Source of the DNA: Candidatus Forterrea multitransposorum CG_2015-17_Forterrea_25_41
GTDB taxonomy: Archaea; Iainarchaeota; Iainarchaeia; Iainarchaeales; CSSED10-239
DNA length: 64,000 nucleotides
NCBI GenBank assembly: GCA_009392915.1
Contig: CP045477.1
Coordinates: forward strand, 416,001 to 480,000
Direction: 5' to 3'
Part shown: positions 1-52,058 of the stretch, piece by piece
How the letters are laid out: each line of letters opens with the position of its first letter
How positions within the stretch are numbered: position 1 is the stretch's first letter
Made by a program: the position numbers and the translations under genes
The notes under the pieces: generated by a model
What the model saw: the letters and a program-made list of their open reading frames with translations, nothing else
The model's database searches: none
What the model was told of the DNA's origin: nothing

Positions 1-140
1 GTTTTTTTACTAAATATATGTCTTAATAATCTACTCTTTCCAGAATTATTTCCACCTACAAAAATATTTAGTTTTGATAAACTATTAATAGTATCTGGAT
101 AACCTTCAAAATTTAATTTAATATTTTTAATTAATTCCAT
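1..140 (-). CDS. P-loop ATPase, N-terminal fragment (AAA15/ABC-like, restriction-linked type); truncated by window edge
   Basis: Reverse translation of 1-140 gives MELIKNIKLNFEGYPDTINSLSKLNIFVGGNNSGKSRLLRHIFSKK. The Walker A motif GGNNSGKS lies ~30 aa from the N-terminus, as in OLD/RloA-type ATPases. Its ATG (140-138) shares one base with the hsdS TAA (142-140). Confidence 0.6.
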   Translation of the reverse strand, partial: MELIKNIKLNFEGYPDTINSLSKLNIFVGGNNSGKSRLLRHIFSKK

Positions 141-1432
141 TAATATTTCACCCTTATTTTTCCAGACATTAATTTAGGTAATAATAAATCTCTTATTTCA
201 GATAATTTCTTATTTTGCCTTTTATTTTCTGAAATTTTAATAAATGTACTTCTGATCATTGAATTATATTTTTTCAATATTTCATTTGATGGATTCAATA
301 TCTGTATTTTCTGAATGTTTTCATTATTAATTGCTTGCATTGTTGTACCATTACATAAGTTATTTTTTATTATTTCAAAATCATCATTTAATACAAAATT
401 CCAAATATAATACAAAGCATTTTCTTTTATGTCTAACCCAGCAAATCCAGTAGATAAAATTAAATTTTCTAATTCCCAAGCGCTATACTTATCAAAATAA
501 GTTATTTTTTTACTATTTTTCATTTTAGCAAACCACACTGTATTCTCTTTAGGTTGCATATTTGCTCTTGATGGTCTTTTTATAAATGTAATTTTAGTAT
601 TATAATTTATTATTTCAGAATTATCTATATCTGCAGTTGCAACATATGTTTTTTCATCAAAGTCTTCTGTACCAACCTTTGTAAAAGACGTTAGATTATT
701 GTCTCCTAAATGCCCAACATCCCATCCTTTAGGTATTTCTTTTTTTAATTCTTTATTATAAACCATTTCTCCTCCACTAGATTTATAAGGTTCTCCTTTT
801 TCATTTGGAAATTCAAAATCAACAAACCATCTTTTAAATAAAGTTTTTCCTATTTCTTCAAGTGTTTGATTCATTTTTCTGTTTAGTTCTATTTTTTCAT
901 CTAAATCAGAAAGGATTTTTGCAATTTTTAACATTTCATTATTATTTTTTGGAACTATAACTAGTAATTTTTTAATATCCCCTAAACTAAGTGTTTTTTG
1001 TGTAGAACCACCAACATTTTTTTCAATTTGATTTAAAATATATTTAGAATTTAAGGCATAATATAAAAAATAACTGTTTATATTCGGGTTAATTATCACC
1101 GTATTTTGCCCTAAACAAAATAATTCTGTTGTATTTACAAAACTTGTAATTCCATATGTTCCAACCCTAGTCATTATGATATCATTTTGCTTTGGGATAT
1201 AATTTTTAGTAAATTCATCATAAATAGATTTAGTAACTTTTAATGTATTTGATAAATCTAAACTACCTGATTTCACATCAGTTACTCTTACCATTGATAT
1301 TCCTTTATTAACATAAATTGGAGTTTTATGACAAGAATCAATAACTATAGATATATCATTTAATGATTTAACGTCCCAATCTTTAGGAATTAATCCAATT
1401 TCTGTTTTTTTAAATTTTATTTTATTAATCAT
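140..1432 (-). CDS. hsdS: Type I restriction-modification specificity subunit HsdS
   Basis: 430 aa with two variable target-recognition halves, each opening with IPKDWDV/IPKGWDV. They are separated by conserved helical spacers (LSDLDEKIELNRKMNQTLEEIGKTLFKRWFVDFEFP, and C-terminal LSEIRDLLLPKLMSGKIRV). Confidence 0.85.
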   Translation of the reverse strand: MINKIKFKKTEIGLIPKDWDVKSLNDISIVIDSCHKTPIYVNKGISMVRVTDVKSGSLDLSNTLKVTKSIYDEFTKNYIPKQNDIIMTRVGTYGITSFVNTTELFCLGQNTVIINPNINSYFLYYALNSKYILNQIEKNVGGSTQKTLSLGDIKKLLVIVPKNNNEMLKIAKILSDLDEKIELNRKMNQTLEEIGKTLFKRWFVDFEFPNEKGEPYKSSGGEMVYNKELKKEIPKGWDVGHLGDNNLTSFTKVGTEDFDEKTYVATADIDNSEIINYNTKITFIKRPSRANMQPKENTVWFAKMKNSKKITYFDKYSAWELENLILSTGFAGLDIKENALYYIWNFVLNDDFEIIKNNLCNGTTMQAINNENIQKIQILNPSNEILKKYNSMIRSTFIKISENKRQNKKLSEIRDLLLPKLMSGKIRVKY

Positions 1433-2400
1433 AATATTTCCAATTTATGTTCTGAATTAACAATTTCATAAAAATCATTAATATAAGTAATTATGTTTAA
1501 ATATATCGTATTATTTTTTACATCTGATACTTCTATGTGAGAAGTTATTTCAAAAATAGATCCTGTTCTTGTTTCTTCAGGAATATTAATATTCTCAGAA
1601 TACTCTAAAATTCTAAAATTTTTAATTTTAACTTTATCTTCTCCAATTTCAATTTGATTTAATTTAGACATATAATCATTAATATAACTTTTAAAATCAT
1701 ATGAATTGCTAAATTCCTCAATTGAATTAATAAAATTTTCTTCAGGATAAATATTATCTAATTTAATAAATAAACCATCACCTATCGGTTCTATAACTAT
1801 ATCTTTATTAAATAACTCTTTAAATTCTAATGCACAATTTTTATTAAATCCTAAATCCCTTGTAATTAAAAATACATTTTCATAATCATCAAAATCTTGA
1901 GATAATATTGTCTCCCATATCAAGGCATCTTTAAAACCAGAATCAGATTTTTTATCTTTATTAAAAGGAGACTTTTTTTCTAATGCTCTTATTTTTAGAT
2001 CATTAAATTTTTGAAAAATTAAATCATCAGAAATTTTTAAAATTTTTATTTTGTTTTCAAAAATATAATTTCCAATTTTATCCAAAATAAAATCTTTTAT
2101 ATTAAAATCATCTGAAATTTTAAATAAGTTAATTTTCGAATCAATATAAGCATATCTTTTTTTAATGTCACCTAATTTTCTGCTATCGGATTTAAAACAA
2201 TCTCTTCTTTGTTTTTCTAATTCAAATAAAGTTATATCTGTTATTGATAATTTAATATATTCAAACAAATTTTTTTTAAAAATATAATCATACAATTTTT
2301 TAAAATCATTATTAAATGTAAAAGTATGATAATAAATATTATCACTACTATTTTCTTTTAACACATTTGTATCAAAAATAATTATTGTTTTTGGCATCAT
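1429..2400 (-). CDS. PIN-like nuclease domain protein (resembles DUF4935 family) with an uncharacterised C-terminal domain
   Basis: N-terminal IIIFDTNVL is a PIN strand-1 aspartate motif. Further acidic motifs are LFELEKQ, FKDALIWETIL and FLITRDLGF. It has 4-nt overlaps with both neighbours (ATGA type). The family name is from memory, not a search. Confidence 0.55.
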   Translation of the reverse strand: MMPKTIIIFDTNVLKENSSDNIYYHTFTFNNDFKKLYDYIFKKNLFEYIKLSITDITLFELEKQRRDCFKSDSRKLGDIKKRYAYIDSKINLFKISDDFNIKDFILDKIGNYIFENKIKILKISDDLIFQKFNDLKIRALEKKSPFNKDKKSDSGFKDALIWETILSQDFDDYENVFLITRDLGFNKNCALEFKELFNKDIVIEPIGDGLFIKLDNIYPEENFINSIEEFSNSYDFKSYINDYMSKLNQIEIGEDKVKIKNFRILEYSENINIPEETRTGSIFEITSHIEVSDVKNNTIYLNIITYINDFYEIVNSEHKLEIL

Positions 2401-2879
2401 TTAAAATCAAATATTTTCTTTTTATTAGAATAATTAATTATTATTTTATATTTTAAATTGTTTTCTAAATTCATCTCTTTTTCAAAATTTTCTTTTGAAC
2501 TATAATTTAATTTAACTAATATTTTATCAGTGTGATTTGGTTGTAATAGAAATGGAAATATAACTGGTTTATATGATGGTAGAGGATAACTTGTTTTTAA
2601 ACCAACACCCAAACTTACAGATTCAGATACATTCAAATAAACTGAATTAGGCATAAATTTAGTTTTATTATGATATAATTCCATCTTCTTAATTGTAGTT
2701 GGTCTTTGACCAACATTACTTAAATAAAAATAAATCCAAATTTCATTTTCATCCATCTTAACTTCTAAAACTTCTTTTTCAACATATAATTTAGGTTTAT
2801 TTTTACTTTCTATATAAAAAGATAATAATATACCTAATATTGCAACTATTAAACCCAATATACTAATTATATATTCCAT
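2397..2879 (-). CDS. Small membrane-anchored protein, unknown function
   Basis: The N-terminal hydrophobic helix IISILGLIVAILGILLSFYI is followed by a ~130-aa beta-looking domain. It is translationally coupled on both sides within the hsdM-hsdS operon. Confidence 0.5.
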   Translation of the reverse strand: MEYIISILGLIVAILGILLSFYIESKNKPKLYVEKEVLEVKMDENEIWIYFYLSNVGQRPTTIKKMELYHNKTKFMPNSVYLNVSESVSLGVGLKTSYPLPSYKPVIFPFLLQPNHTDKILVKLNYSSKENFEKEMNLENNLKYKIIINYSNKKKIFDFK

Positions 2880-3370
2880 TAGTTATCATTTTTCTTTTTA
2901 AACTTTCTAATTAATGCTAATAATAGTTCTTGTTTAAAAAATATTATACTTAGTAATTCTATACCAAAAGCAATATTTAAAACAACAGATAATTTAAAAT
3001 TATTAATTATTGTTTTGTAAATACTTATTTGACTATTTTCTATATTTTCAAATTTTTGATTTAAATTAGTTATTTGATACTGTATAATATTATAATCATT
3101 TTTTATTTCTTCAAAATCTTTTTTAGTTATATTTTCTGTTATTAATTTGTTATAGTCAGACTGACAATTTTTTAGTTGTGAACTAATCTGTATTATATTG
3201 TTATTTAATGTAATTTTATTTAATTCACAATTATTTAATTTATCTACAATAGGTTTACATTTATCCTCTGATAATAAACCAAACAATCCTTGTATAATTG
3301 GAATAAATATCATCACAATTATAAACACAACTAAAATACCTCCAATTATTGCAAATGGATTATCCGCCAT
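2879..3370 (-). CDS. Bitopic/hairpin membrane protein with a central coiled-coil, unknown function
   Basis: It has an N-terminal TM (FAIIGGILVVFIIVMIFIPIIQGLFGLL), an N/Q/I-rich heptad-like middle and a C-terminal TM (LSVVLNIAFGIELLSIIFF). A GAGGTGA Shine-Dalgarno-like motif sits inside the last hsdM codons, 7-8 nt before its ATG. Confidence 0.5.
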   Translation of the reverse strand: MADNPFAIIGGILVVFIIVMIFIPIIQGLFGLLSEDKCKPIVDKLNNCELNKITLNNNIIQISSQLKNCQSDYNKLITENITKKDFEEIKNDYNIIQYQITNLNQKFENIENSQISIYKTIINNFKLSVVLNIAFGIELLSIIFFKQELLLALIRKFKKKNDN

Positions 3371-3372
3371 AT

Positions 3373-4890
3373 CTATTTCACCTCAAAGCCGATTCCTTTA
3401 AGATTTTTCTTAATCTCTTCTTCTAATTTCTTAGATTCTTTAAATTGTTCGCTTAATTCTTTTGTAAGGCGAGTCATCTTTTCTTGAAAAACTTCAGGAT
3501 CTTCCTCTTCTTCCTTAAAACCAACGTAACGGCCAGGTGTAAGAATAAAGTCTTGCTTTTCAATCTCTTCAAGAGAGGCTGATTTACAAAAAGAAAGCTC
3601 ATCTTGATAACTTTTTTTGTTTATCGGGTCTTTTGACCTCCAAAGAGAAACAGTTTCTGAAATTTTTGTAAAATCTTCTTCAGTGAGTTCTCTTTGTCTT
3701 CTGTTAATCATTTGTCCAAGATTTCTAGCATCAATAAAAAGAGTTTCTCCTTTTCTATGTGCAGGTTTATTTCTATTAACAAACCAAAGACAAGCAGGAA
3801 TCATTGTATTATAAAATAATTGAGATGGAAGAGCAATAATACACTCTACAAGATCATCTTTAAGTATATTTTTTCTAATTTCTCCTTCTCCAGAAGTATT
3901 AGAACTTAAAGAACCGTTTGAAAGAACAAAACCAGCAATTCCTTTAGATCCTAAATGATAAATAAAATGTTGAACCCATGCAAAATTAGCGTTCCCTGCA
4001 GGAGGAACTCCATATTTCCAACGAGCATCCTCTCTTAATAGATCTCCAGACCAGTCTGAATCATTAAAAGGAGGATTTGCAATTATAAAATCAGCTCTTA
4101 AGTCTTTATGTTCATCATTTAGAAAACTACCTTCATTATTCCAAACAACTTTATTATCAATACCTCTTATTGCAAGATTCATTTTACATAATTTCCAAGT
4201 TGTTTGATTAGATTCTTGACCATAAATAGATATTTGACCTATTTTTCCACCATGTTTTTCAACAAACTCTTCAGATTGAACAAACATTCCTCCAGAACCA
4301 CAACAAGGGTCAAATATTCTTCCTTTAAAAGGTTGTATTATTTCAACTAATAATTTAACAATAGATTTAGGAGTATAGAATTGGCCTCCTTTTTTTCCTT
4401 CAGCAGAAGCAAATTGTCCTAAGAAATATTCATATACTCTTCCTAAGATATCTTTACTATTATCTTTAGAATTAAAAGAAATTGTTCCTATAAGATCAAT
4501 TAACGCTCCTAATTTTGTTTTATCTAAAGATGGTTTTGAATAATCTTTTGGAAGTATTCCTTTAAGTGTTGGATTTTCTTTTTCAATTAAATCCATTGAA
4601 TCATCAATAATTCTTCCAATTTCTATATTTTTTGCATTATCTTGAAGATATTCCCATCTTGCTTTTTTTGGAACATAAAATACTCTTTGAGAGACATATT
4701 CATCTTTATCTTCTGGGTCTGCATATTCTTCTTCTTTTAGTTTAGTATATAGTTCTTCAAAAGAATCAGATATATATTTTAAAAATATTAAACCTAAAAC
4801 TACATGTTTATATTCTGCAGCATCCATATTACTTCTTAATTTATCTGCTGCTTTCCAAAGCTTTTCTTCAAATCCTAAATCTTGAGTCAT
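3373..4890 (-). CDS. hsdM: Type I restriction-modification DNA methyltransferase subunit HsdM (N6-adenine)
   Basis: 505 aa with the HsdM N-terminal domain ([32 protein letters not shown]). The SAM motif is [11 protein letters not shown] and the catalytic motif IV is IIANPPFN. Confidence 0.92.
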
Positions 4891-7028: not shown

Positions 7029-7164
7029 ATAAATCAATCCCTTAAATACACTTTTCCCAATCAAGAGCATAGTGTATATACAACTTTGACACAACGAGTT
7101 TATAAATAGATCGATTACACTAAAATATAATAAAAAGAGAAGATTAAAAAATAAATCTTATCTA

Positions 7165-7890
7165 CTAAACTTTAATCTCTATTAAAACAGGATTATGGTC
7201 ACTAAATCTTCTAATTTCATCATTTTCAAGAACTTTGCAAGAAATAATGTTTTTAAAAATAGGTTTATTCATAAAAAAGTAATCATTTTGCCACTTAACT
7301 TTACTTTTTTTATGTCTTAAGGTCTGTACAGGATATTCTTTATCAGTTAAATCAAAAGCATCAAAAAAATTAAAATCTTTTAATCTATCAAAAAAAATCT
7401 TATGAGAGTTATTATATTTATATATTAAATCAAATTGAATACTTGCATTTAAATCTCCCCCCAATATAATATTTCTTTTACCATTAAGTTTACCATAAAA
7501 CAAAGGAGATAAATCAGATAACATGCTATGTAGATTAGGAATTGAATAACCATCTGTCATAAGACCATATAATGATATAAAAGTAAGTTTTTTATTATTT
7601 ATAACAGTATTTGCTATTGTTAAAGATCCATTAAATTTAGTATTTATTGTTTCCTGAGAAAGATTGTATTTTTTACTATAAATTCCAGATCCCCAATTAC
7701 GATTTTTATCAATTTTATTCCAAATAAGATTTGAATCTTTTTTAATATGTTCAGGAGGATTTGATTCTTGAAATAAATATATATCTGCATCAATATTATT
7801 TAAAAAATAATCCCAAATATCTTTATTTAGCTTTTTATTTTTCCAATAATCCATATTCCAAGTAACTATTTTAATATTCATTCTTATCAA
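7165..7890 (-). CDS. Endonuclease/exonuclease/phosphatase (EEP) family protein
   Basis: The EEP signature motifs are IKIVTWNM, FQESN, GGDLNAS and C-terminal FSDHNPVLIEI. Confidence 0.8.
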   Translation of the reverse strand: MIRMNIKIVTWNMDYWKNKKLNKDIWDYFLNNIDADIYLFQESNPPEHIKKDSNLIWNKIDKNRNWGSGIYSKKYNLSQETINTKFNGSLTIANTVINNKKLTFISLYGLMTDGYSIPNLHSMLSDLSPLFYGKLNGKRNIILGGDLNASIQFDLIYKYNNSHKIFFDRLKDFNFFDAFDLTDKEYPVQTLRHKKSKVKWQNDYFFMNKPIFKNIISCKVLENDEIRRFSDHNPVLIEIKV

Positions 7891-7898
7891 TTTTTATT

Positions 7899-8738
7899 TT
7901 AAATAACCTTCTTAATATTCTTTTCCAAGTAAACAATAAACTTATCTTTATTCTTTCCTTTTAACTTTTCCCAAGAATTATATACTTTTCTTATTTTATC
8001 TTCTAAAATAATATCTTCTTTATCATTATATCTGTATCTTGCATATTTTTCTTTATTATAACCTAACTTATATGCTAAAATATTTTCAATAGTAGATGTA
8101 AAAGTTTCACTAAATGACTGCTTTTTTATTCCACCATATTTATCTAAAATATATTTTTCAATTCTATTATATATTTCATTATTTGAATTAATTACATGAA
8201 TAAGTTCATGAATTAATAAAATATATATTCTATTTTTAGTAAATTTTCTATAATCAACATCATCTCCTATAGATATATGAAAAGATAAATTTGTTGCAGA
8301 ACCTCCAAAACCAGGCCTTGTATTATTTGCAACAAAGAAAGTAGAGCTTACTTTTGTAGAATTATAAATAACATCTAAATAAGGTTTAATTATTTTAAGT
8401 TCTTTCTCTTTAAAATTAGTTATAAATGTATTTAGAAAATCTTCTGATTTTTTATTAATAACAATAGGAAATAATTTTTTTAAAACAATTAGATGTTTTT
8501 TTTCAATATTACTTAATTTTTTTTTATTAACAATATTATCTATTAAATTTTTGTAATTAAGCCTATTTGTAGAAATAATACTATAATCTTTATTAATCAA
8601 AAAAATTAAATCTACCATTTCTTTTAATTGATTTTTATTAGCAAAAGTATAAACTTTATCAATATTACAATATGCTTTACAAGCAAGTCTTAAATCTTTT
8701 GAAGGTTTTATTAAGTTTAGTTTAATATCAACACTCAT
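7899..8738 (-). CDS. Hypothetical protein with HExxH zinc-metallopeptidase-like motif
   Basis: 279 aa containing LLIHELIHVINS (HExxH). It lies 8 nt upstream of the EEP gene on the same strand. I recognise no further family. Confidence 0.4.
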   Translation of the reverse strand: MSVDIKLNLIKPSKDLRLACKAYCNIDKVYTFANKNQLKEMVDLIFLINKDYSIISTNRLNYKNLIDNIVNKKKLSNIEKKHLIVLKKLFPIVINKKSEDFLNTFITNFKEKELKIIKPYLDVIYNSTKVSSTFFVANNTRPGFGGSATNLSFHISIGDDVDYRKFTKNRIYILLIHELIHVINSNNEIYNRIEKYILDKYGGIKKQSFSETFTSTIENILAYKLGYNKEKYARYRYNDKEDIILEDKIRKVYNSWEKLKGKNKDKFIVYLEKNIKKVI

Positions 8739-8805
8739 AAAGATATCTATTAAATAAAGGTTTTTTAAAAGTTATGTTTAATAAGGAGCTATCATAAACT
8801 AAAAA

Positions 8806-9147
8806 TTAAACATTTACCCAAATAACACAACCTTTCTTATGAACGTAAGGTTTTGGAGAAGAATATCTTTTGATATCAGACAATACCCAAGCATGAGGAT
8901 TATTATATTTTAAATCTAAAACATCTTCTTTCTTTATTTGATGCTTTTCTAAGTTTTTAAATAAAATATCTTTGTTAATTTTTATTGAATCTTTAATAGT
9001 ACATTCACCATATACTTTTTTGCTGCCACTCATAATAAGAGCAATTCTTTCACCAATCTTTGAAGTATTAAAGTTTCTTATCTCCCAAGTCTTTTTTCCT
9101 TCTAAGATTAAATTTAACCATTTTTCTTTAATTATAAGGCCTTTCAT
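8806..9147 (-). CDS. ASCH domain protein (PUA-like fold)
   Basis: 113 aa. MKGLIIKEKWLNLILEGKKTWEIRNFNTSKIGERIALIMSG matches the typical ASCH N-terminus (IKxxWaxlIlxGkKTxEiR). Confidence 0.7.
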   Translation of the reverse strand: MKGLIIKEKWLNLILEGKKTWEIRNFNTSKIGERIALIMSGSKKVYGECTIKDSIKINKDILFKNLEKHQIKKEDVLDLKYNNPHAWVLSDIKRYSSPKPYVHKKGCVIWVNV

Positions 9148-9244: not shown

Positions 9245-10603
9245 TTATTTATCAATAACTTTCCAATATCCTGCTTTGTCTGAACCTATTCTTTTTATCT
9301 TCTTTTGCTCTTTTAATATTTTTAAATATCTTTCAATAGTCTTTGTACTTAAATTAAATTCTGTTGCCATTTGAGCATAAGTAACTTTATTATTAGCTTT
9401 AATTAATTTTAATATTTTTACACCGACATTTACACCGACATTTACACCGACATTTACACCGACATTTACAGTGTCTTTTACAGGTGCATTTACACCGACA
9501 TTCATAGTAGATTCTATTATTTTTTGTCTTTTAAAAACAATACAAAACCAATCAGTATCTATATTAAACTTAACACTTGGAAAAAGTTTTTTTATTCTTT
9601 TAATACCAGAACCAATCTTTTCAATAAACTCTGTTCTTTGTAAACAACCTGCTAAAATAGGATTTCTTAATATACTTACTTTTCCAAAATCTTTTGGACT
9701 AAAAAGAAGTTTTCCTGGATTTAATATTTCAACTCTATCTTCATACACTTCTACCAATATTCTTCCTTGAACAAAATAATCTCTATGAATCATGGCATTT
9801 AGTACTGCTTCCCTTAAAGCAGCCTCTGGTATTTCAGGGGTTTCAACTCTTCTTAAATTAATAATATCAGCCCGTGTTTTTGTATTTCTTAGGATAAATA
9901 ACACAGCATTTTCAAAATTTGATAAAAAGTCAGATTCAAATACTTTTTTATCAAGCATAACAGCCTTAGTATCTCCTTGGTATAAAACACAACTAATATC
10001 TGCATTTAAAAAGAATTTAGTAATTCTTTTTGAAAATAATAATGCACAGGCATTATTTGGAATATCATTTGTTAAAAGATTTAAATTTTTTAAAATATGC
10101 TCTTTTGATAGAGTTGTTGAAAATTTTGCTTTTTTTCTATATTTAAGAAATTTAGTATTATCTATATCTTTAAAATTAAATGAAGAAGTTTGTTTTTCAA
10201 AAGAAATTTTATTTTCGTTTTGTAAAAAATCAATAATTTCATTTCTATCTAGCTTTTGAGAGTTAGCACCTTGCCTTACATAAAAAGAACCACCTACTAA
10301 ATATGGTTTATCTTTTCCTAAAGGAACATATATTATACCAATATTATCTATGATTTCAAAATTAACAACTAAAGAGGGATCTATGTTTCTTGCAATTGTT
10401 TGTACTTCAGAGGAAAATCTATTGTTTATAGAAATACCTTTTATTTCTCCTTTATCTGTAACTCCTAAAAGAATTTTACCTCCATCTGAGTTTGCAAAAG
10501 CACAAATTGATTTTCCAATTTCTTTATGGTTTAAACTTTCTTTAAACTCAAGAGTATATCCTTCTCCTGTTTTTATAAGATTAAGTAAGTTCTTTTTATC
10601 CAT
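9245..10603 (-). CDS. AlbA_2 (Schlafen-like) / HATPase_c_4-type putative transcriptional regulator with C-terminal wHTH
   Basis: The N-terminus LIKTGEGYTLEFKESLN...ICAFANSDGGKILLGV is the divergent-AAA/AlbA_2 signature. The middle has REAVLNAMIHRDY and the C-terminus is a wHTH (VTYAQMATEFNLSTKTIERYLKILKEQKKIKRIG). Confidence 0.75.
   Translation of the reverse strand: MDKKNLLNLIKTGEGYTLEFKESLNHKEIGKSICAFANSDGGKILLGVTDKGEIKGISINNRFSSEVQTIARNIDPSLVVNFEIIDNIGIIYVPLGKDKPYLVGGSFYVRQGANSQKLDRNEIIDFLQNENKISFEKQTSSFNFKDIDNTKFLKYRKKAKFSTTLSKEHILKNLNLLTNDIPNNACALLFSKRITKFFLNADISCVLYQGDTKAVMLDKKVFESDFLSNFENAVLFILRNTKTRADIINLRRVETPEIPEAALREAVLNAMIHRDYFVQGRILVEVYEDRVEILNPGKLLFSPKDFGKVSILRNPILAGCLQRTEFIEKIGSGIKRIKKLFPSVKFNIDTDWFCIVFKRQKIIESTMNVGVNAPVKDTVNVGVNVGVNVGVNVGVKILKLIKANNKVTYAQMATEFNLSTKTIERYLKILKEQKKIKRIGSDKAGYWKVIDK
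9421..9504. repeat. 12-bp in-frame tandem repeat (caccgacattta): 4 perfect plus 3 degenerate units
   Basis: Perfect units lie at 9421-9468 and degenerate units at 9469-9504. On the minus strand they encode (VNVG)n in the linker before the wHTH of the AlbA_2 protein. Confidence 0.9.
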
Positions 10604-10937
10604 TTATATCATTCTTTTTAAAATTATACTTTTCTTTTAATTATTAAAAATTATGTTTTTTTGGAAGGTAATCTCTTTTATAATATATATTAGGACCTTT
10701 AAACTACATATATATTTTGAAAGGGAGAGGCCTCGTGGCCGAGAAAAGAGCTTTATAATTAAAAGTTACTAAAATGCGCAAAATAAAATTAAAAAAAGAA
10801 TATATTTAACAAAAAAAAGTAAAATTATTTTATTTAAATAAAACATAAAGTAAAATATGTTTAAATATGTTTTGCAAAGAAGATATATATTATATATAAA
10901 AGAATATATAACAAAAATTAAAAAAATATGAAAACTT

Positions 10938-22314: not shown

Positions 22315-22321
22315 TTAAAAG

Positions 22322-22392
22322 TCCCCTCAACCGGATTTGAACCGATTCTAAAAGGTCTACAGCCCTTTGTGCTATCATTACACCATGAGGGG
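22322..22392 (-). tRNA. tRNA-Tyr (GUA)
   Basis: The minus strand reads CCCCTCA-TG-GTGT..GCAC-A-AAGGG-CTGTAGA-CCTTT-TAGA-ATCGG-TTCAAAT-CCGGT-TGAGGGG-A. It folds as a cloverleaf with anticodon GTA. It has the C1:G72 pair typical of archaeal/eukaryal tRNA-Tyr and no encoded CCA. Confidence 0.9.
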
Positions 22393-22892: not shown

Positions 22893-25400
22893 ATGAAAAA
22901 AATATTTTATATACTTATAATCTTTATGACTTTATTTTTTGCAGGAAATTTATTTGCATTCACACCAACATTTTATGTGGGAGACGGAGTAACAGGACAA
23001 GCAACTCAATGCCTTACTCCTAATTACAATACAATAACTGGAGCATTAGAAAATATTTATAGTAACAATATTCCAAATTCACTAATAATTCTTTGTGAAG
23101 GAACATATAAAGAAGATGTGTTTCTTTCAAGTGAACTTGGAATTACATTAATGGGAGAAAATGAAAATGTAATTCTTGAAGGATTAGATAATGAAAATAG
23201 TGTAATTTCTATTTTATATGGAAAAAAATTTTTTCTAAAAAATTTAAAAATTAATTCTGATTCACTATATGGAATTTTTTCAATACAATCAGAAAACATA
23301 AATCTAGAAGATATAGAAATTAATCTTTCTTCATCAACAATTAAAGATGAAAATTCATCAGGAATAAATTTTTCTTATTCAGATAATGTAACATTAAAAA
23401 ATAAAATAGAAATTAATGTTAGTTCTAAAGATAAAGATAAAATAACAGGAATTACAATTAATAATTCTCAAGTTAGTTTAGAAGCTGAAGATTTAATTAT
23501 AGAAAACTTATTTTCAACAAATAATTCAGCAATAATATATGGACTTGAGATTATAGATTCAGAAGTAGATTTAAAAGAAAATATTAAAATAAAAAATATC
23601 AGTGGACTTGAAGCAATTGGAATTTTAATAGATAATTCAGAAATTAATAATACATCTCAAATAAGTATTAATTCAGAGAAAATAGATTCAATGTCAATTT
23701 CTAAAGGAATAGAAATTAAAAATAATTCTCAAATTAATATTAATGGAGATACAATAATTAATCTATTAGAAATAGGTAATGGAAATTCAGAAGCTTATGG
23801 TTTATTTTTAGAAAATACCCAAATACCTTCTTTTGGAGAAATTAGTCTATATGATATTAGAGGAGATTATATTTCTAAAGGAATTTACATAAAAGATACT
23901 GATGCTTTCTTTATAAAAGAAATAATCTTTTCAGAGAATAAAACAAATGATCAAACAACTTTTGTTGAGATAATTAATTCATCAGGAGATATTTCAGAGA
24001 TATATGATTCAGAAGAATCTTTTACAAATTATTCTAATTTTAAATATATACATCTTAAAGAAAATTCAGATATTAGAATTAATAAATTTAATATATATAG
24101 TGGAGATGCTTTCCCTGAATGTTTATATATTGAAGAAAATTCAAAAATAGAAATTACAAATGGTAATTTTCAAAATTGTCTGACAGGTTCTATAAAAAAT
24201 AAAGATTCTCAAATAATATTAAAAGAGACAAATAATTTTAATGAAAATAAAATTATTTCTTTTCAAAGTAATGATTCTAAAATAGAAGTTTACAAACCAG
24301 TAAACTTAAGTTTTTATAAAAATGGAAATAAAATAAACTTAGATTTAATTAAATTTTATAATGAAGATGGATATTATACAAATATATTTTTACAAAATAA
24401 ATCAGATGTAAAAATTGATTTATTATACTATAAACTTGCTTTCAATAATGGTATTGCAGATACTAAAGAATACAAAAGTTATGGGATTAAAACAATTTAT
24501 GACAGAATAAATGAAAATCCAGAATATATTTCTCTTGAAGGATATCAAGAAAATAGTTATAATATAGAAACACAAGAAATGCCTACAGAATTTATTGAAA
24601 TGAGAGCAAAAGATGGTGAGGCAACAGAAACTTCTAACCACTTTTCAGTAGTTGAAAAAGAATGTAGTGTTATTAAAAGTAATACCTATAAATGTTATGA
24701 TATTAAAAAATCAGATTCAATTAATGGTACAGATTATGAAATTGATTTTAAAATACCTGTAAGTTGGATAATTGCAAATGAACTTAAAGGAGATAATATT
24801 TCTCTTTACCATTATGAAAATGGAAATTATAAAAAACTAAATACAGAAAAGAAAGAAATGATTAATAATTATCAAAAATATACTGCAAATATTGAATCAT
24901 TCTCAGAATTTAAGATTGGAGGAGAAGAAACAACTGAAGAAAGTTCATCTTCTCAAACAAATGATTCATCAAGTCAAGATACAACTACAAATAATGATAC
25001 AAATACAGTAGATCAAAATAACAATACACCAGAAACACCAGATCAAAATATTACAACACCAGAAACAATAGATGAAAATAAAGAATGTAATATCACTTGT
25101 GATCCTGTTTATGAATATTTAGACATTGATAATTGTGAATGTATAGATATATCAGATAGAGTAGGATGTAGAATAGAGTGTGGTCCAGGATATACAGTTG
25201 ATAGAGAAAATTGTGAATGTGTAGAAATTGTTCTTGAAGGTGTTAAAACAGGAATTAAATTCTTTAATGGTGTTCTTTATATAGTATTAATAATTGTTAT
25301 AATAATACTAAGTATAATAGTATTTAAAAAGAAAAAACCAAAAATGAGAAAAAATGATACCCACAATCCTAAAAATAAAAAAAACACTAGAAGAAAATAA
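22893..25400 (+). CDS. Large surface protein: signal peptide, beta-helix-like N/S/I repeats, PGF-pre-PGF-like domain, T/N/Q-rich linker, Cys-rich modules, C-terminal TM anchor
   Basis: The signal peptide is MKKIFYILIIFMTLFFAGNLFA, followed by repetitive I-x-N-S/I-x-I-x-N segments. IDFKIPVSWIIANELKGDNISLYHYENGNYKKLNTE...FSEFKIGG matches the archaeal PGF-pre-PGF pattern. Two C..C.P.Y......NCEC modules precede the TM LYIVLIIVIIILSIIVF and a basic tail. Confidence 0.75.
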   Translation: MKKIFYILIIFMTLFFAGNLFAFTPTFYVGDGVTGQATQCLTPNYNTITGALENIYSNNIPNSLIILCEGTYKEDVFLSSELGITLMGENENVILEGLDNENSVISILYGKKFFLKNLKINSDSLYGIFSIQSENINLEDIEINLSSSTIKDENSSGINFSYSDNVTLKNKIEINVSSKDKDKITGITINNSQVSLEAEDLIIENLFSTNNSAIIYGLEIIDSEVDLKENIKIKNISGLEAIGILIDNSEINNTSQISINSEKIDSMSISKGIEIKNNSQININGDTIINLLEIGNGNSEAYGLFLENTQIPSFGEISLYDIRGDYISKGIYIKDTDAFFIKEIIFSENKTNDQTTFVEIINSSGDISEIYDSEESFTNYSNFKYIHLKENSDIRINKFNIYSGDAFPECLYIEENSKIEITNGNFQNCLTGSIKNKDSQIILKETNNFNENKIISFQSNDSKIEVYKPVNLSFYKNGNKINLDLIKFYNEDGYYTNIFLQNKSDVKIDLLYYKLAFNNGIADTKEYKSYGIKTIYDRINENPEYISLEGYQENSYNIETQEMPTEFIEMRAKDGEATETSNHFSVVEKECSVIKSNTYKCYDIKKSDSINGTDYEIDFKIPVSWIIANELKGDNISLYHYENGNYKKLNTEKKEMINNYQKYTANIESFSEFKIGGEETTEESSSSQTNDSSSQDTTTNNDTNTVDQNNNTPETPDQNITTPETIDENKECNITCDPVYEYLDIDNCECIDISDRVGCRIECGPGYTVDRENCECVEIVLEGVKTGIKFFNGVLYIVLIIVIIILSIIVFKKKKPKMRKNDTHNPKNKKNTRRK

Positions 25401-40511: not shown

Positions 40512-40783
40512 TGTACAGGCACTTACTGGTCGAAAAACAGTTCAAGAAAACATTTAGCTTTATAAAATCTCAAGTCCGCAACCCAAAAAGCATCAAACAC
40601 TTAGGATACTGCTGCTTCCTTCCGGATCTGACAGGGTTTACTAAGATATTCGATCTTAATGGACGAACCGTCAGCAATTTTACAAAGAGTGCCTCCTTGC
40701 TTATTTGCCTTCCAGTAATAATCACTCCGGCTATGTAGATTTCCGGTAACAGGAGACTACAACCCCCCCAGCTAGCCTATACA
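40512..40783 (-). ncRNA. Signal recognition particle RNA (archaeal 7S-type)
   Basis: This is a GC-rich island in AT-rich DNA. The minus strand contains GUCAGAUCCGGAAGGAAGCAGCAG (about 40609-40633), the universal helix-8 motif (compare E. coli 4.5S GGUCCGGAAGGAAGCAGCC). The 5' Alu-like segment is GGCUAGCUGGGGGGUUGUAGUCUCCUGUUACCGGAAA. Terminal pairing UGUAUAGGC/GCCUGUACA closes the molecule. The ends are approximate. Confidence 0.8.
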
Positions 40784-46774: not shown

Positions 46775-46856
46775 TGCAGGGTACAGGATTCGAACCTGTG
46801 AAGCACTAAGCAATGGATTTTGAGTCCATCCCCTTTGACCGCTCGGGAAACCCTGC
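46775..46856 (-). tRNA. tRNA-Leu (CAA)
   Basis: The minus strand reads GCAGGGT...ATGGA-CTCAAAA-TCCAT-long variable arm-ACAGG-TTCGAAT-CCTGT-ACCCTGC-A. It is class II with anticodon CAA. Confidence 0.9.
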
Positions 46857-48963: not shown

Positions 48964-49092
48964 TTTTTTTATTCACCTCGTAACTATAAGTTTAATTAAC
49001 TAATTATTATATAAAAAGATTTAAAAAGAGGAACAAATACTTAGGAAAAAACCTTAAAGAACATTTCTTTTAAAAAATAAAAAAGATTAAAG

Positions 49093-49175
49093 CGCAGAGG
49101 ACGGGATTCGAACCCGTGTAGTCGTGAGACTCTAGCTTAGCAGGCTAGCGCGTTTGACCACTCTGCCACCTCTGC
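49093..49175 (-). tRNA. tRNA-Ser (GCU)
   Basis: The minus strand reads GCAGAGG...CTAGC-CTGCTAA-GCTAG-long variable arm-ACGGG-TTCGAAT-CCCGT-CCTCTGC-G. It is class II with anticodon GCT. Confidence 0.9.
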
Positions 49176-51753: not shown

Positions 51754-51986
51754 ATGTTATTACCACCTTTTTATTTTTTGTATAAAATTATATAAAAGAT
51801 TATAACTTACTTTAATTAGCCTTTTAAAAATAATTAAAGCTACATTAAGTTATAAACTACAAAATACTTATAAACTTTATTATTTAAATAGAATAGGTGA
51901 AACATTGCGAAACTTTACGAAAAATAAGCTTAAAAACCAAAGAAAACTATATAATTTTAAAAGTTTTTTAAAAATTAGATAATAAG

Positions 51987-52058
51987 CGCCCCAGGCGGGA
52001 GTCGAACCCGCCCCACAACCTTGACAGGGTCGTATCCTAACCGATAGACTACTGGGGC
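51987..52058 (-). tRNA. tRNA-Asp (GUC)
   Basis: The minus strand reads GCCCCAG-TA-GTCT..GGAT-A-CGACC-CTGTCAA-GGTTG-...-GCGGG-TTCGACT-CCCGC-CTGGGGC-G, with anticodon GTC. Confidence 0.9.

Follow-up and report, generated by a model that had tools for sequence, protein, structure and literature searches.

We analyzed a 64,000-nucleotide stretch of the genome of Candidatus Forterrea multitransposorum (GenBank contig CP045477.1, positions 416,001 to 480,000 of the forward strand; this whole stretch is hereafter the window, and coordinates are counted from its first letter). The subject of this work is a minus-strand gene for a predicted Schlafen protein and the 12-nt tandem repeat that lies in it just ahead of the segment coding for the C-terminal winged helix-turn-helix (wHTH) domain. 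We found that this array changes copy number on otherwise identical haplotypes, that tandem repeats occupy the same interdomain site in homologues from Archaea and Bacteria, and that repeat and wHTH behave as one exchangeable cassette. Conservation of the repeat units at synonymous sites suggests that selection acts on the DNA or RNA sequence itself, at least in part. The features of the gene, in the order in which they are translated and with the methods that located them, are the following (pLDDT, predicted local distance difference test; TRF, Tandem Repeats Finder).

9245..10603, minus strand: whole gene, 452 amino acids (aa), assigned to the prokaryotic Schlafens of the HisKinase-HTH class (open reading frame (ORF), Pfam)
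10250..10564, minus strand: Schlafen/AlbA_2 nuclease domain, residues 14-118 (Pfam SLFN_AlbA_2, E = 8.1e-21)
10541-10564, minus strand: E14-x4-E19-x-K21 motif (alignment)
9587..9763, minus strand: GHKL/histidine-kinase-like ATPase domain, HATPase_c_4, residues 281-339 (Pfam, E = 2.3e-14)
9437..9514, minus strand: predicted disordered tether, residues 364-389 (AlphaFold2, pLDDT <50)
9470..9505, minus strand: three diverged units, residues 367-378 (sequence)
9494-9505, minus strand: diverged unit ATGAATGTCGGT (MNVG)
9482-9493, minus strand: diverged unit GTAAATGCACCT (VNAP)
9470-9481, minus strand: diverged unit GTAAAAGACACT (VKDT)
9422..9469, minus strand: four perfect 12-nt units GTAAATGTCGGT, (VNVG)x4, residues 379-394 (sequence, TRF)
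9257..9418, minus strand: C-terminal wHTH, residues ~396-449 (Pfam HTH_11, HTH_24, HTH_DeoR; AlphaFold2)

The gene encodes a predicted Schlafen of the HisKinase-HTH class

Judged from its sequence, the protein is a prokaryotic Schlafen of the HisKinase-HTH class, all three sequence features that mark this class being present. The SLFN_AlbA_2 profile (PF04326) scored 75.2 bits against a cut-off of 25.3 and HATPase_c_4 scored 53.6 bits against a cut-off of 26, and residues 396-436 matched HTH_11, HTH_24, and HTH_DeoR, each above its cut-off. The Schlafen catalytic motif E-x4-E-x-K is formed by E14, E19, and K21 (EGYTLEFK) and was invariant across 79 aligned homologues. An earlier note, made from the letters of the window, had named the protein an AlbA_2-type regulator; the AlbA_2 domain is present, but the label is dated for a Schlafen of this class with a catalytic motif. 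An AlphaFold2 model based on the alignment of the 79 homologues reached a mean pLDDT of 87.9 with confident GHKL and wHTH domains, the latter composed of helices 390-403, 409-416, and 420-432 and strands 436-439 and 446-449. Foldseek matched the Schlafen part to the N-domains of SLFN13, SLFN14, SLFN11, and SLFN5, the ATPase part to histidine-kinase CA domains, and the last domain to small winged helices such as Z-alpha and MarR. In addition, 3lmm, an uncharacterised structural-genomics protein of the same architecture, was matched both by Foldseek and by sequence, and the closest named homologues were found in metagenome-assembled genomes (MAGs) of Nanoarchaeota and Woesearchaeota. According to PMC13056530, prokaryotic Schlafens are classed by their fused domains, HisKinase-HTH proteins making up 19.2%; they are proposed antiphage effectors and have recently been recognised as widespread antiphage tRNases, and the trigger and mechanism of the HisKinase-HTH class are not yet known.

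The array lies between the ATPase and the wHTH. On the plus strand, caccgacattta is repeated four times head to tail at 9421-9468, and in the codon register of the minus strand the four GTAAATGTCGGT copies occupy 9422-9433, 9434-9445, 9446-9457, and 9458-9469. The encoded array peptide is MNVG VNAP VKDT (VNVG)x4 V (residues 367-395), and residues 367-398 of the 452-aa ORF read MNVGVNAPVKDTVNVGVNVGVNVGVNVGVKIL. TRF called the region 9417-9502 (period 12, 7.2 copies, score 116), the top score among the 150 repeats listed for the window. The earlier note had described four identical 12-bp units followed by three decayed ones, translated on the minus strand as a (VNVG)n linker between the ATPase-like body and the wHTH. 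Sequence and TRF confirmed the units, the Pfam placement agrees with the position, and in the AlphaFold2 model the tether (residues 364-389), which takes in the three diverged units and the greater part of the perfect array, had a pLDDT below 50 and no secondary structure between two confident domains. The repeat had also been described as GC-richer than its background. This holds for the unit (42%) as compared with the whole gene (26%), but the contrast is modest, with 34% at 9400-9499 and as much as 38% at 9750-9849. Because the whole genome has a GC content of ~22-26%, the AT-richness beside the array is uninformative about an unwinding element. Allowing 2 or fewer mismatches, GTAAATGTCGGT occurs 6 times in the 64 kb, as compared with 1.37 expected, and 0 of 100 shuffles reached 6; 5 of the 6 near-matches sit in the array and the other one, a 2-mismatch match, is at chance level.

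Copy number differs between otherwise identical haplotypes

At least 24 contigs carry the exact 452-aa protein with 4 copies, which is indexed in 77 collection blocks. L002 matches the window at 100% identity across 13.4 kb. Other alleles were recovered from the following contigs.

ENA assembly, 432-kb contig (L087): 2 units, not 4; over 13,359 bp aligned with the window, 0 substitutions and one 24-bp gap, in the array
Sister haplotype with 93% aa identity, syntenic with the window (L001/P0001): 2 units
Two JGI contigs (L084, L085): 3 copies

When L085 was compared with L001 over 6,483 bp, there were 0 mismatches and one additional 12-nt unit in L085. The 2-copy and 3-copy alleles were each present in more than one assembly. 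Two independent repeat changes have occurred on two backbones without any point substitution, and mutation of the array is far faster than that of the DNA around it. Hence the array is hypermutable, since haplotypes of 6-13 kb that are alike in everything else carry alleles of 2, 3, and 4 copies. The earlier note had read the perfect copies as a sign of recent expansion and had asked for repeat-number variation among relatives. Both points were borne out: the perfect copies reflect recent slippage, because L087 and L085 differ from their near-twins solely in the array, and the alleles with 2, 3, and 4 copies rule out invariance. Copies are won and lost, most simply through replication slippage, and, as the unit is 12 nt long, each event shifts the tether by 4 residues with the frame kept. 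The finding is a natural coding repeat that far outpaces point mutation in an uncultivated archaeon, with 0 substitutions versus one repeat change in 13 kb.

The contigs of 2 related genomes (L004 and L072) break off inside their linker arrays, which fits assembly breaks at repeats of heterogeneous copy number.

Tandem repeats occupy the same site throughout the family

To place the array in its family, 80 homologous loci (L004-L083) were taken from GTDB species representatives. These loci span Nano-, Woese-, Pace-, and Aenigmarchaeota, Methanosarcinales, and Thermoplasmata, as well as Bdellovibrionales, Spirochaetaceae, Bacteroidetes, Omnitrophota, Patescibacteria, Elusimicrobia, and others. 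At the peptide level, a periodicity score of at least 5 was reached by 72 of 121 homologues versus 1% of shuffles; the periods were 4 (42 proteins), 8 (15), and 11 (13) residues, and nearly all lay 56-72 residues from the C-terminus. At the DNA level, TRF detected a repeat with a score of at least 50 in 67 of 71 linkers (~169 nt), as compared with 5 of 71 bodies (~1,094 nt) and 1 of 71 wHTH segments, and the arrays end ~55-70 codons ahead of the stop. A linker at the equivalent position, for which the earlier note proposed to search the homologues, is therefore present. A tandem repeat at this interdomain site is a hallmark of Schlafen-GHKL-wHTH proteins in Archaea and Bacteria, and what had been taken for a local accident is a family-wide feature that is conserved at the nucleotide level (see below).

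The unit types are diverse (VNVG, VKDT, VGSK, EKTV, SEKS, KTTQ, TPQV, NVPK, PEPL, and more) and present in 2-6 copies. Neighbouring units share the codon at 579 of 597 positions with identical residues, as compared with 283.5 expected, and therefore slippage or homogenisation is ongoing everywhere. The DNA periods were 12 (54 loci), 24 (7), 11 (5), and 33 (3), with 13, 14, 23, and 36 occurring once each. The five arrays of 11 nt consist of ACGCAAATCCG (6.7 copies), CACCCAGAAAA (4), AAAGTACCAGA (3.3), CGAAGCAAATC (4.5), and AATCGAACGAA (3.8). Arrays of 11, 13, and 23 nt are found in intact ORFs with the wHTH in frame and encode non-repetitive peptides, and some 11-nt units, read in all three frames, give an 11-residue peptide repeat. 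Slippage that changes linker length without breaking the frame, as the earlier note had it, holds for the 12-nt unit of the window but not as the whole story, because the periods of some relatives are not multiples of three. The reading of the segment as a slippage-prone linker is right yet incomplete.

A search of the open-access literature found no description of linker repeats in Schlafen/AlbA_2-HATPase_c_4 (COG2865) proteins, and text searches of PMC13056530 gave nothing relevant on a repeat or linker; cassette exchange and orphan cassettes are not mentioned there. In one locus (L028, bacterium isolate GMC4), the EKTV-type unit GAGAAAACTGTG is read in another frame as a KLWR repeat, and the ORF stops 5 codons after it without a wHTH; the allele is frameshifted or the sequence contains an error.

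Repeat and wHTH form an exchangeable cassette

The clearest exchange was detected in L086/P0122, an NCBI MAG that carries the same locus as the window, flanked by SOD, ValRS, ASCH, Exo_endo_phos, and hsdM genes. Its Schlafen gene is 97.4% identical to that of the window through nt 1080 and only ~50% identical from there on, where (VGSK)n and a different wHTH replace the VNVG units and their wHTH; the junction lies ~19 nt upstream of the first unit. Relatives add to this evidence. In Methanosarcina hadiensis (L029, 4366-4700), a decayed LGEK-type array with a wHTH lies just downstream of the expressed SEKS-type gene, and in a Spirochaetaceae MAG (L064, 2620-2915) an orphan array of 7.8 copies lies upstream; a frameshift at a poly-G run separates it from a wHTH that nearly duplicates the expressed one. 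In three proteins (P0037, P0111, and P0023), an in-frame remnant of an older cassette stands ahead of the newer one. No orphan cassette was found in the 64-kb window.

Unit and wHTH also co-vary. With body identity held at 40-50%, wHTH identity climbed with the unit match, from 0.35 at 0-1 matching residues to 0.55 when all 4 of 4 matched. The partial correlation between unit similarity and wHTH identity was r = 0.39, a value reached by 0 of 500 permutations, and body identity hardly predicted wHTH identity (r = 0.11). Since a swap is seen in a syntenic strain, orphan cassettes are present in relatives, and the unit type co-varies with the wHTH subtype, the repeat and the wHTH act as one swappable cassette.

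In L086 (7081-8246), the replacement also brings an extra KilA-N gene (7466-8263) right after the Schlafen gene; this gene is not at the window locus.

Repeat units are conserved at the nucleotide level

The same units recur letter for letter in very distant lineages, as the following examples illustrate.

GAGAAAACTGTG, EKTV unit: Methanosarcinales, an unclassified archaeon, Ignavibacteria, Omnitrophota, Spirochaetaceae
TCGGAGAAAAGT, SEKS unit: Pacearchaeota, Methanococcoides, Methanosarcina
GTTGGTAGTAAGTTGGTAGAAAAG, VGSKLVEK unit: five lineages

The units GTTGGTAGTAAG and ACCCCCCAAGTT form the arrays of other subtypes. The wHTH segments of the loci that share the listed units have only 45-60% protein identity, and where their residues agree, the codon is the same in 20-50% of cases. 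In 64 pairs of loci with related units and a body identity below 60%, which are phylogenetically non-independent, 188 of 211 identical residues in the units (89%) had the same codon, a share that was only 41% for the wHTH and 44% for the body. Moreover, 57 of 64 unit codons were the modal codon of other lineages versus 21.3 expected from the codon usage of each gene, a count reached by 0 of 200,000 simulations. The conservation has sharp edges: nucleotide identity was 0.94-1.00 within the unit but dropped to 0.24-0.32 over the eight codons before it and to 0.46-0.67 beyond it, the sequence directly upstream of the units being random and the wHTH synonymously saturated. The window itself conforms to this. 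The second Val of every VNVG unit is encoded by GTC, which is used for 1 of 59 Val codons in the rest of the gene and ValRS, and VNVG-type units in an Aminicenantes bacterium and another lineage likewise read GTA AAT/AAC GTC GG. The lone VKDT unit of the window has the same nucleotides as the expanded unit of L006, and its lone VNAP unit those of the expanded unit of L090/P0030.

Under standard population genetics, neutral concerted evolution does not slow synonymous divergence, and the units are conserved at synonymous sites. We therefore infer that the repeat is maintained by selection that would act at least partly on the nucleic acid and not on the peptide alone. A constraint on the units at the DNA or RNA level is likely, and the repeat is probably more than a floppy protein linker. 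Matches between unit types when the same DNA is read in other frames showed only a weak enrichment (5 pairs, as compared with 0.9 expected, agreed at 10 or more of 12 positions), and the 11-nt arrays are a stronger argument than such out-of-frame relations.

Copies of the units were also encountered in viral sequences. A 120-kb viral contig of ~50% GC (L092, IMGVR_UViG_3300020172_005639) carries four copies of GTAAATGTCGGT at 7092-7140, apparently in an intergenic position; the ORFs flanking this array have no Pfam match, and it may be there by chance. The other IMG/VR matches were a TPTF linker on the other strand (L093) and a 2-copy EKTV array in a small ORF (L091). The viral copies are too few to exclude chance. 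A search with the cassette alone for other host proteins gave 2 matches and was unproductive. Proteins of the Fic family may have such a repeat and wHTH module as well.

Weighing of the interpretations

Altogether, we consider it probable that the hypermutable 12-nt array of the window is the local case of a family-wide cassette hallmark that is under selection partly at the nucleic-acid level. A change in copy number would then adjust how far the tether reaches, how many doses of a wHTH-linked DNA or RNA element are present, or both. Several results weigh against this interpretation. The 4-copy allele is the form found in most assemblies of the population, and the variation is real but not rampant. 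Low AlphaFold2 confidence is an indirect sign of disorder, and the non-independence of the pairs bears on the codon statistics. In the 64-kb window the 12-mer does not recur outside the array beyond chance. Reverse-complement symmetry between unit types was not enriched over controls, and an orientation-free DNA motif was rejected on these grounds. A role for mRNA structure was rejected as well, the folding of the array region not being significant (z = -1.15), and so was a cis-element or operator elsewhere, because the matches outside arrays in relatives were orphan cassettes and not operator-like. Finally, the defence tests in PMC13056530 do not cover the HisKinase-HTH class, and the HisKinase-type Schlafens tested there were not protective. 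An internal promoter or terminator was another rejected candidate: sigma-70 and terminator scans were at chance level, with models that are not applicable to an archaeon.

Other explanations were considered against the same evidence. Short-read assemblers may collapse or expand short tandem repeats, and the contigs L004 and L072 end within arrays, but an assembly or sequencing artefact is extremely improbable because at least 24 contigs that were assembled independently of one another have the identical 4-copy gene, a single read is longer than the array (48-84 nt), and the 2- and 3-copy alleles recur in more than one assembly each. The array could instead be a neutral by-product, in which a tether that tolerates any sequence lets slippage-prone repeats arise and drift without function. 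Such drift would suit the predicted disorder of the segment, the copy-number differences between identical haplotypes with no sign of compensation, and the wide differences between the units of different lineages. We nevertheless regard it as improbable, because repeats fill 67 of 71 linkers across both domains of life, synonymous conservation (89% versus 41-44%) is sharply confined to the unit, rare codons are kept in AT-rich genomes, and neutral concerted evolution would not slow synonymous divergence; in addition, arrays of 11, 13, and 23 nt persist in intact genes though slippage by a single unit would shift their frame. These arrays also argue against a function of the tetrapeptide itself, with the DNA repeat as no more than its encoding, whether the peptide were to serve as a spacer (extended or beta-turn), in interaction or autoinhibition, or as a target of modification. 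At this very site they encode peptides without repetition, followed by an intact wHTH. The dominance of period 4, the single hydrophobic residue per four in many units, and the recurrence of unit peptides with given wHTH subtypes all speak for a peptide motif, but conservation reaches synonymous positions, the segment is predicted to be disordered, and the chemistry of the units is heterogeneous (VNVG, EKTV, TPQV, PEPL, GGLN), which makes this explanation very doubtful.

Two further readings start from the cassette. The array might be a recombination handle: placed where the exchangeable C-terminal cassette begins on its 5' side, it would offer short homology for swaps with orphan or foreign cassettes, comparable to the conserved tip boundaries of polymorphic toxins or to HsdS domain shuffling. 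The swap in L086 begins within ~19 nt of the first unit, an orphan array and wHTH adjoin the expressed gene in L029 and L064, remnants of older cassettes precede newer ones in P0037, P0111, and P0023, and 2-3 or more units give 24-36 bp of perfect identity. However, in L086, the only swap observed, a VGSK donor met a VNVG recipient, so that the array was not the homology used; frequent exchange should keep the adjoining wHTH DNA similar, which it is not; and the window holds no orphan cassette. This role is accordingly rather unlikely. In the other reading, the wHTH encoded just downstream would bind each unit as its cognate DNA or RNA site, the cassette would comprise reader and site, and copy number would set autoregulation or tethering of the protein to its own locus. 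The unit type co-varies with the wHTH subtype independently of the body, and the wHTH columns most informative on the unit class are 409 and 420-426, at the start of the recognition helix. The synonymous-site conservation, periods of 11-13 nt that are near one helical turn and not bound to the reading frame, the presence of one array per wHTH in two-cassette proteins, and the precedent of the lambdoid gene O (PMC7466680) would also agree with such a self-encoded binding array. Set against this, no extra unit copies were found in promoters or elsewhere outside cassettes, the units lack a reverse-complement relationship, co-variation is confounded by the common descent of cassettes, and recognition helices are the most subtype-specific part of the wHTH, so that the mutual-information result is expected anyway. 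We hold the self-encoded array to be unlikely. Only tentatively do we propose the more general form, in which the array is primarily a nucleic-acid element with an 11-13 nt period that travels with the wHTH as a 'reader plus site' cassette. In its most specific version, with the array as the site of its own wHTH, copy-number slippage would tune the autoregulation or self-locus tethering of a Schlafen tRNase that often sits within type I restriction-modification operons, as PrrC does, and cassette exchange would re-address the protein. If the nucleic-acid reading were true, the family would offer an uncommon example of a protein linker whose sequence is set by selection at the DNA or RNA level. 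Returning to the interpretation that we prefer, a swappable wHTH cassette, a hypermutable 11-13-nt repeat nearly always ahead of it, and conservation at silent sites provide testable handles on the regulation and diversification of this class.

Genomic neighbourhood

The genes around the Schlafen gene and the structural RNA genes of the window are the following (R-M, restriction-modification; SRP, signal recognition particle).

140-4890, minus strand: type I R-M genes, 4.4 kb beyond the 3' end of the Schlafen gene, with an embedded PIN gene and also two small unknown ORFs
140-1432, minus strand: hsdS
1429-2400, minus strand: PIN-domain gene
3373-4890, minus strand: hsdM
7165-7890, minus strand: Exo_endo_phos nuclease/phosphatase
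7899-8738, minus strand: 279-aa protein without family match
8806-9147, minus strand: ASCH-domain protein, weak match to PADLOC PDC-M11B
22321-22392, 46775-46856, 49092-49175, and 51986-52058, minus strand: tRNA genes for Tyr, Leu, Ser, and Asp, respectively
40512-40783, minus strand: archaeal SRP RNA

The RNA genes establish that the window is archaeal, and the SRP RNA together with the Nanoarchaeota and Woesearchaeota homologues points to a very AT-rich host of DPANN type. Synteny among all related strains extends to the ASCH, 279-aa, and Exo_endo_phos genes (7165-9147) that follow the Schlafen gene. No hsdR was seen within positions 140-4890 of the window. Type I R-M genes were present within 3 kb or less at 19 of the 80 homologous loci, and several of the Schlafen-GHKL-wHTH genes are enclosed by hsd genes, for example between hsdR and hsdS in M. 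hadiensis (L029, 227-6339) and between hsdM and hsdS in the Spirochaetaceae MAG (L064, 377-5672). PrrC, a tRNA anticodon nuclease, is likewise linked to a type I R-M locus (PMC2610378). The R-M linkage supports a putative role of the Schlafen protein in defence. Two other tandem repeats were detected by TRF. A 28-nt repeat at 10793-10855 (2.1 copies, score 70) lies between the divergent Schlafen and ValRS genes, which start at 10603 (minus strand) and 10938 (plus strand), and a 30-nt repeat of AGATCAAAATAACAAAACACCAGAAACAAC at 25010-25081 (2.4 copies) has, with 95, the second-highest score among the repeats listed for the window.

Comparison with known systems

The HisKinase-HTH Schlafens described in PMC13056530 have the same PF04326 domain with E-x4-E-x-K, GHKL/HisKinase-like ATPase, and C-terminal HTH as the protein of the window, and a defence-type neighbourhood is shared; here the host is a very AT-rich DPANN-type archaeon. 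The PrrC and RloC anticodon nucleases (PMC2610378, PMC3458546) likewise combine an ATPase with a tRNase-type effector in or beside hsd operons, as in L029 and L064. They are, however, built from an ABC-ATPase and the PrrC nuclease fold and not from Schlafen and GHKL domains, PrrC has no wHTH cassette or repeat, and there is no sign here of silencing by the R-M enzyme. Proteins with polymorphic C-terminal cassettes are another parallel, L086/P0122 and the window having differing C-terminal modules on near-identical bodies.

The iterons of the lambdoid gene O (PMC7466680) are, as here, tandem DNA repeats in the middle of the gene of a DNA-binding protein. Their number differs between relatives and adds residues to O, and their nucleic-acid function outweighs the peptide. 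In our family, too, interdomain tandem repeats co-vary with a DNA-binding domain, a co-variation confounded by shared descent. The iterons are ~19 bp long as compared with 11-13 bp here, the DNA-binding domain of O is upstream of the repeats and not downstream, and the iterons serve an origin, whereas no evidence of an origin was seen here and binding of the array by the wHTH is putative. In bacterial contingency loci and coding variable-number tandem repeats, slippage is far faster than point mutation, as it is here, where perfect head-to-tail 12-nt units differ in copy number between near-identical genomes. The classical contingency loci act within one species, where they turn genes on and off or diversify surface proteins; the array described here differs in its fixed interdomain site across two domains of life and in its nucleotide-conserved units.

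The TAEL repeat of the EcoR124I/II HsdS subunits (PMC3874165) is also 12 bp long and in frame, the tetrapeptide that it encodes separates modules of a defence protein that recognises DNA, and its natural alleles differ by whole units (2 versus 3), copy number altering the spacing. TAEL forms an alpha-helical coiled coil that spaces two DNA-recognition domains. The segment studied here is instead predicted to be disordered and precedes a single wHTH per chain: AlphaFold2 placed no helix in it (pLDDT <50 at 364-389), and the units are rich in G, N, and P. In addition, units vary among lineages here and some periods are not multiples of three. By analogy, TAEL is the closest mechanistic precedent for a 12-bp repeat that would adjust the spacing of protein modules in steps of 4 residues.

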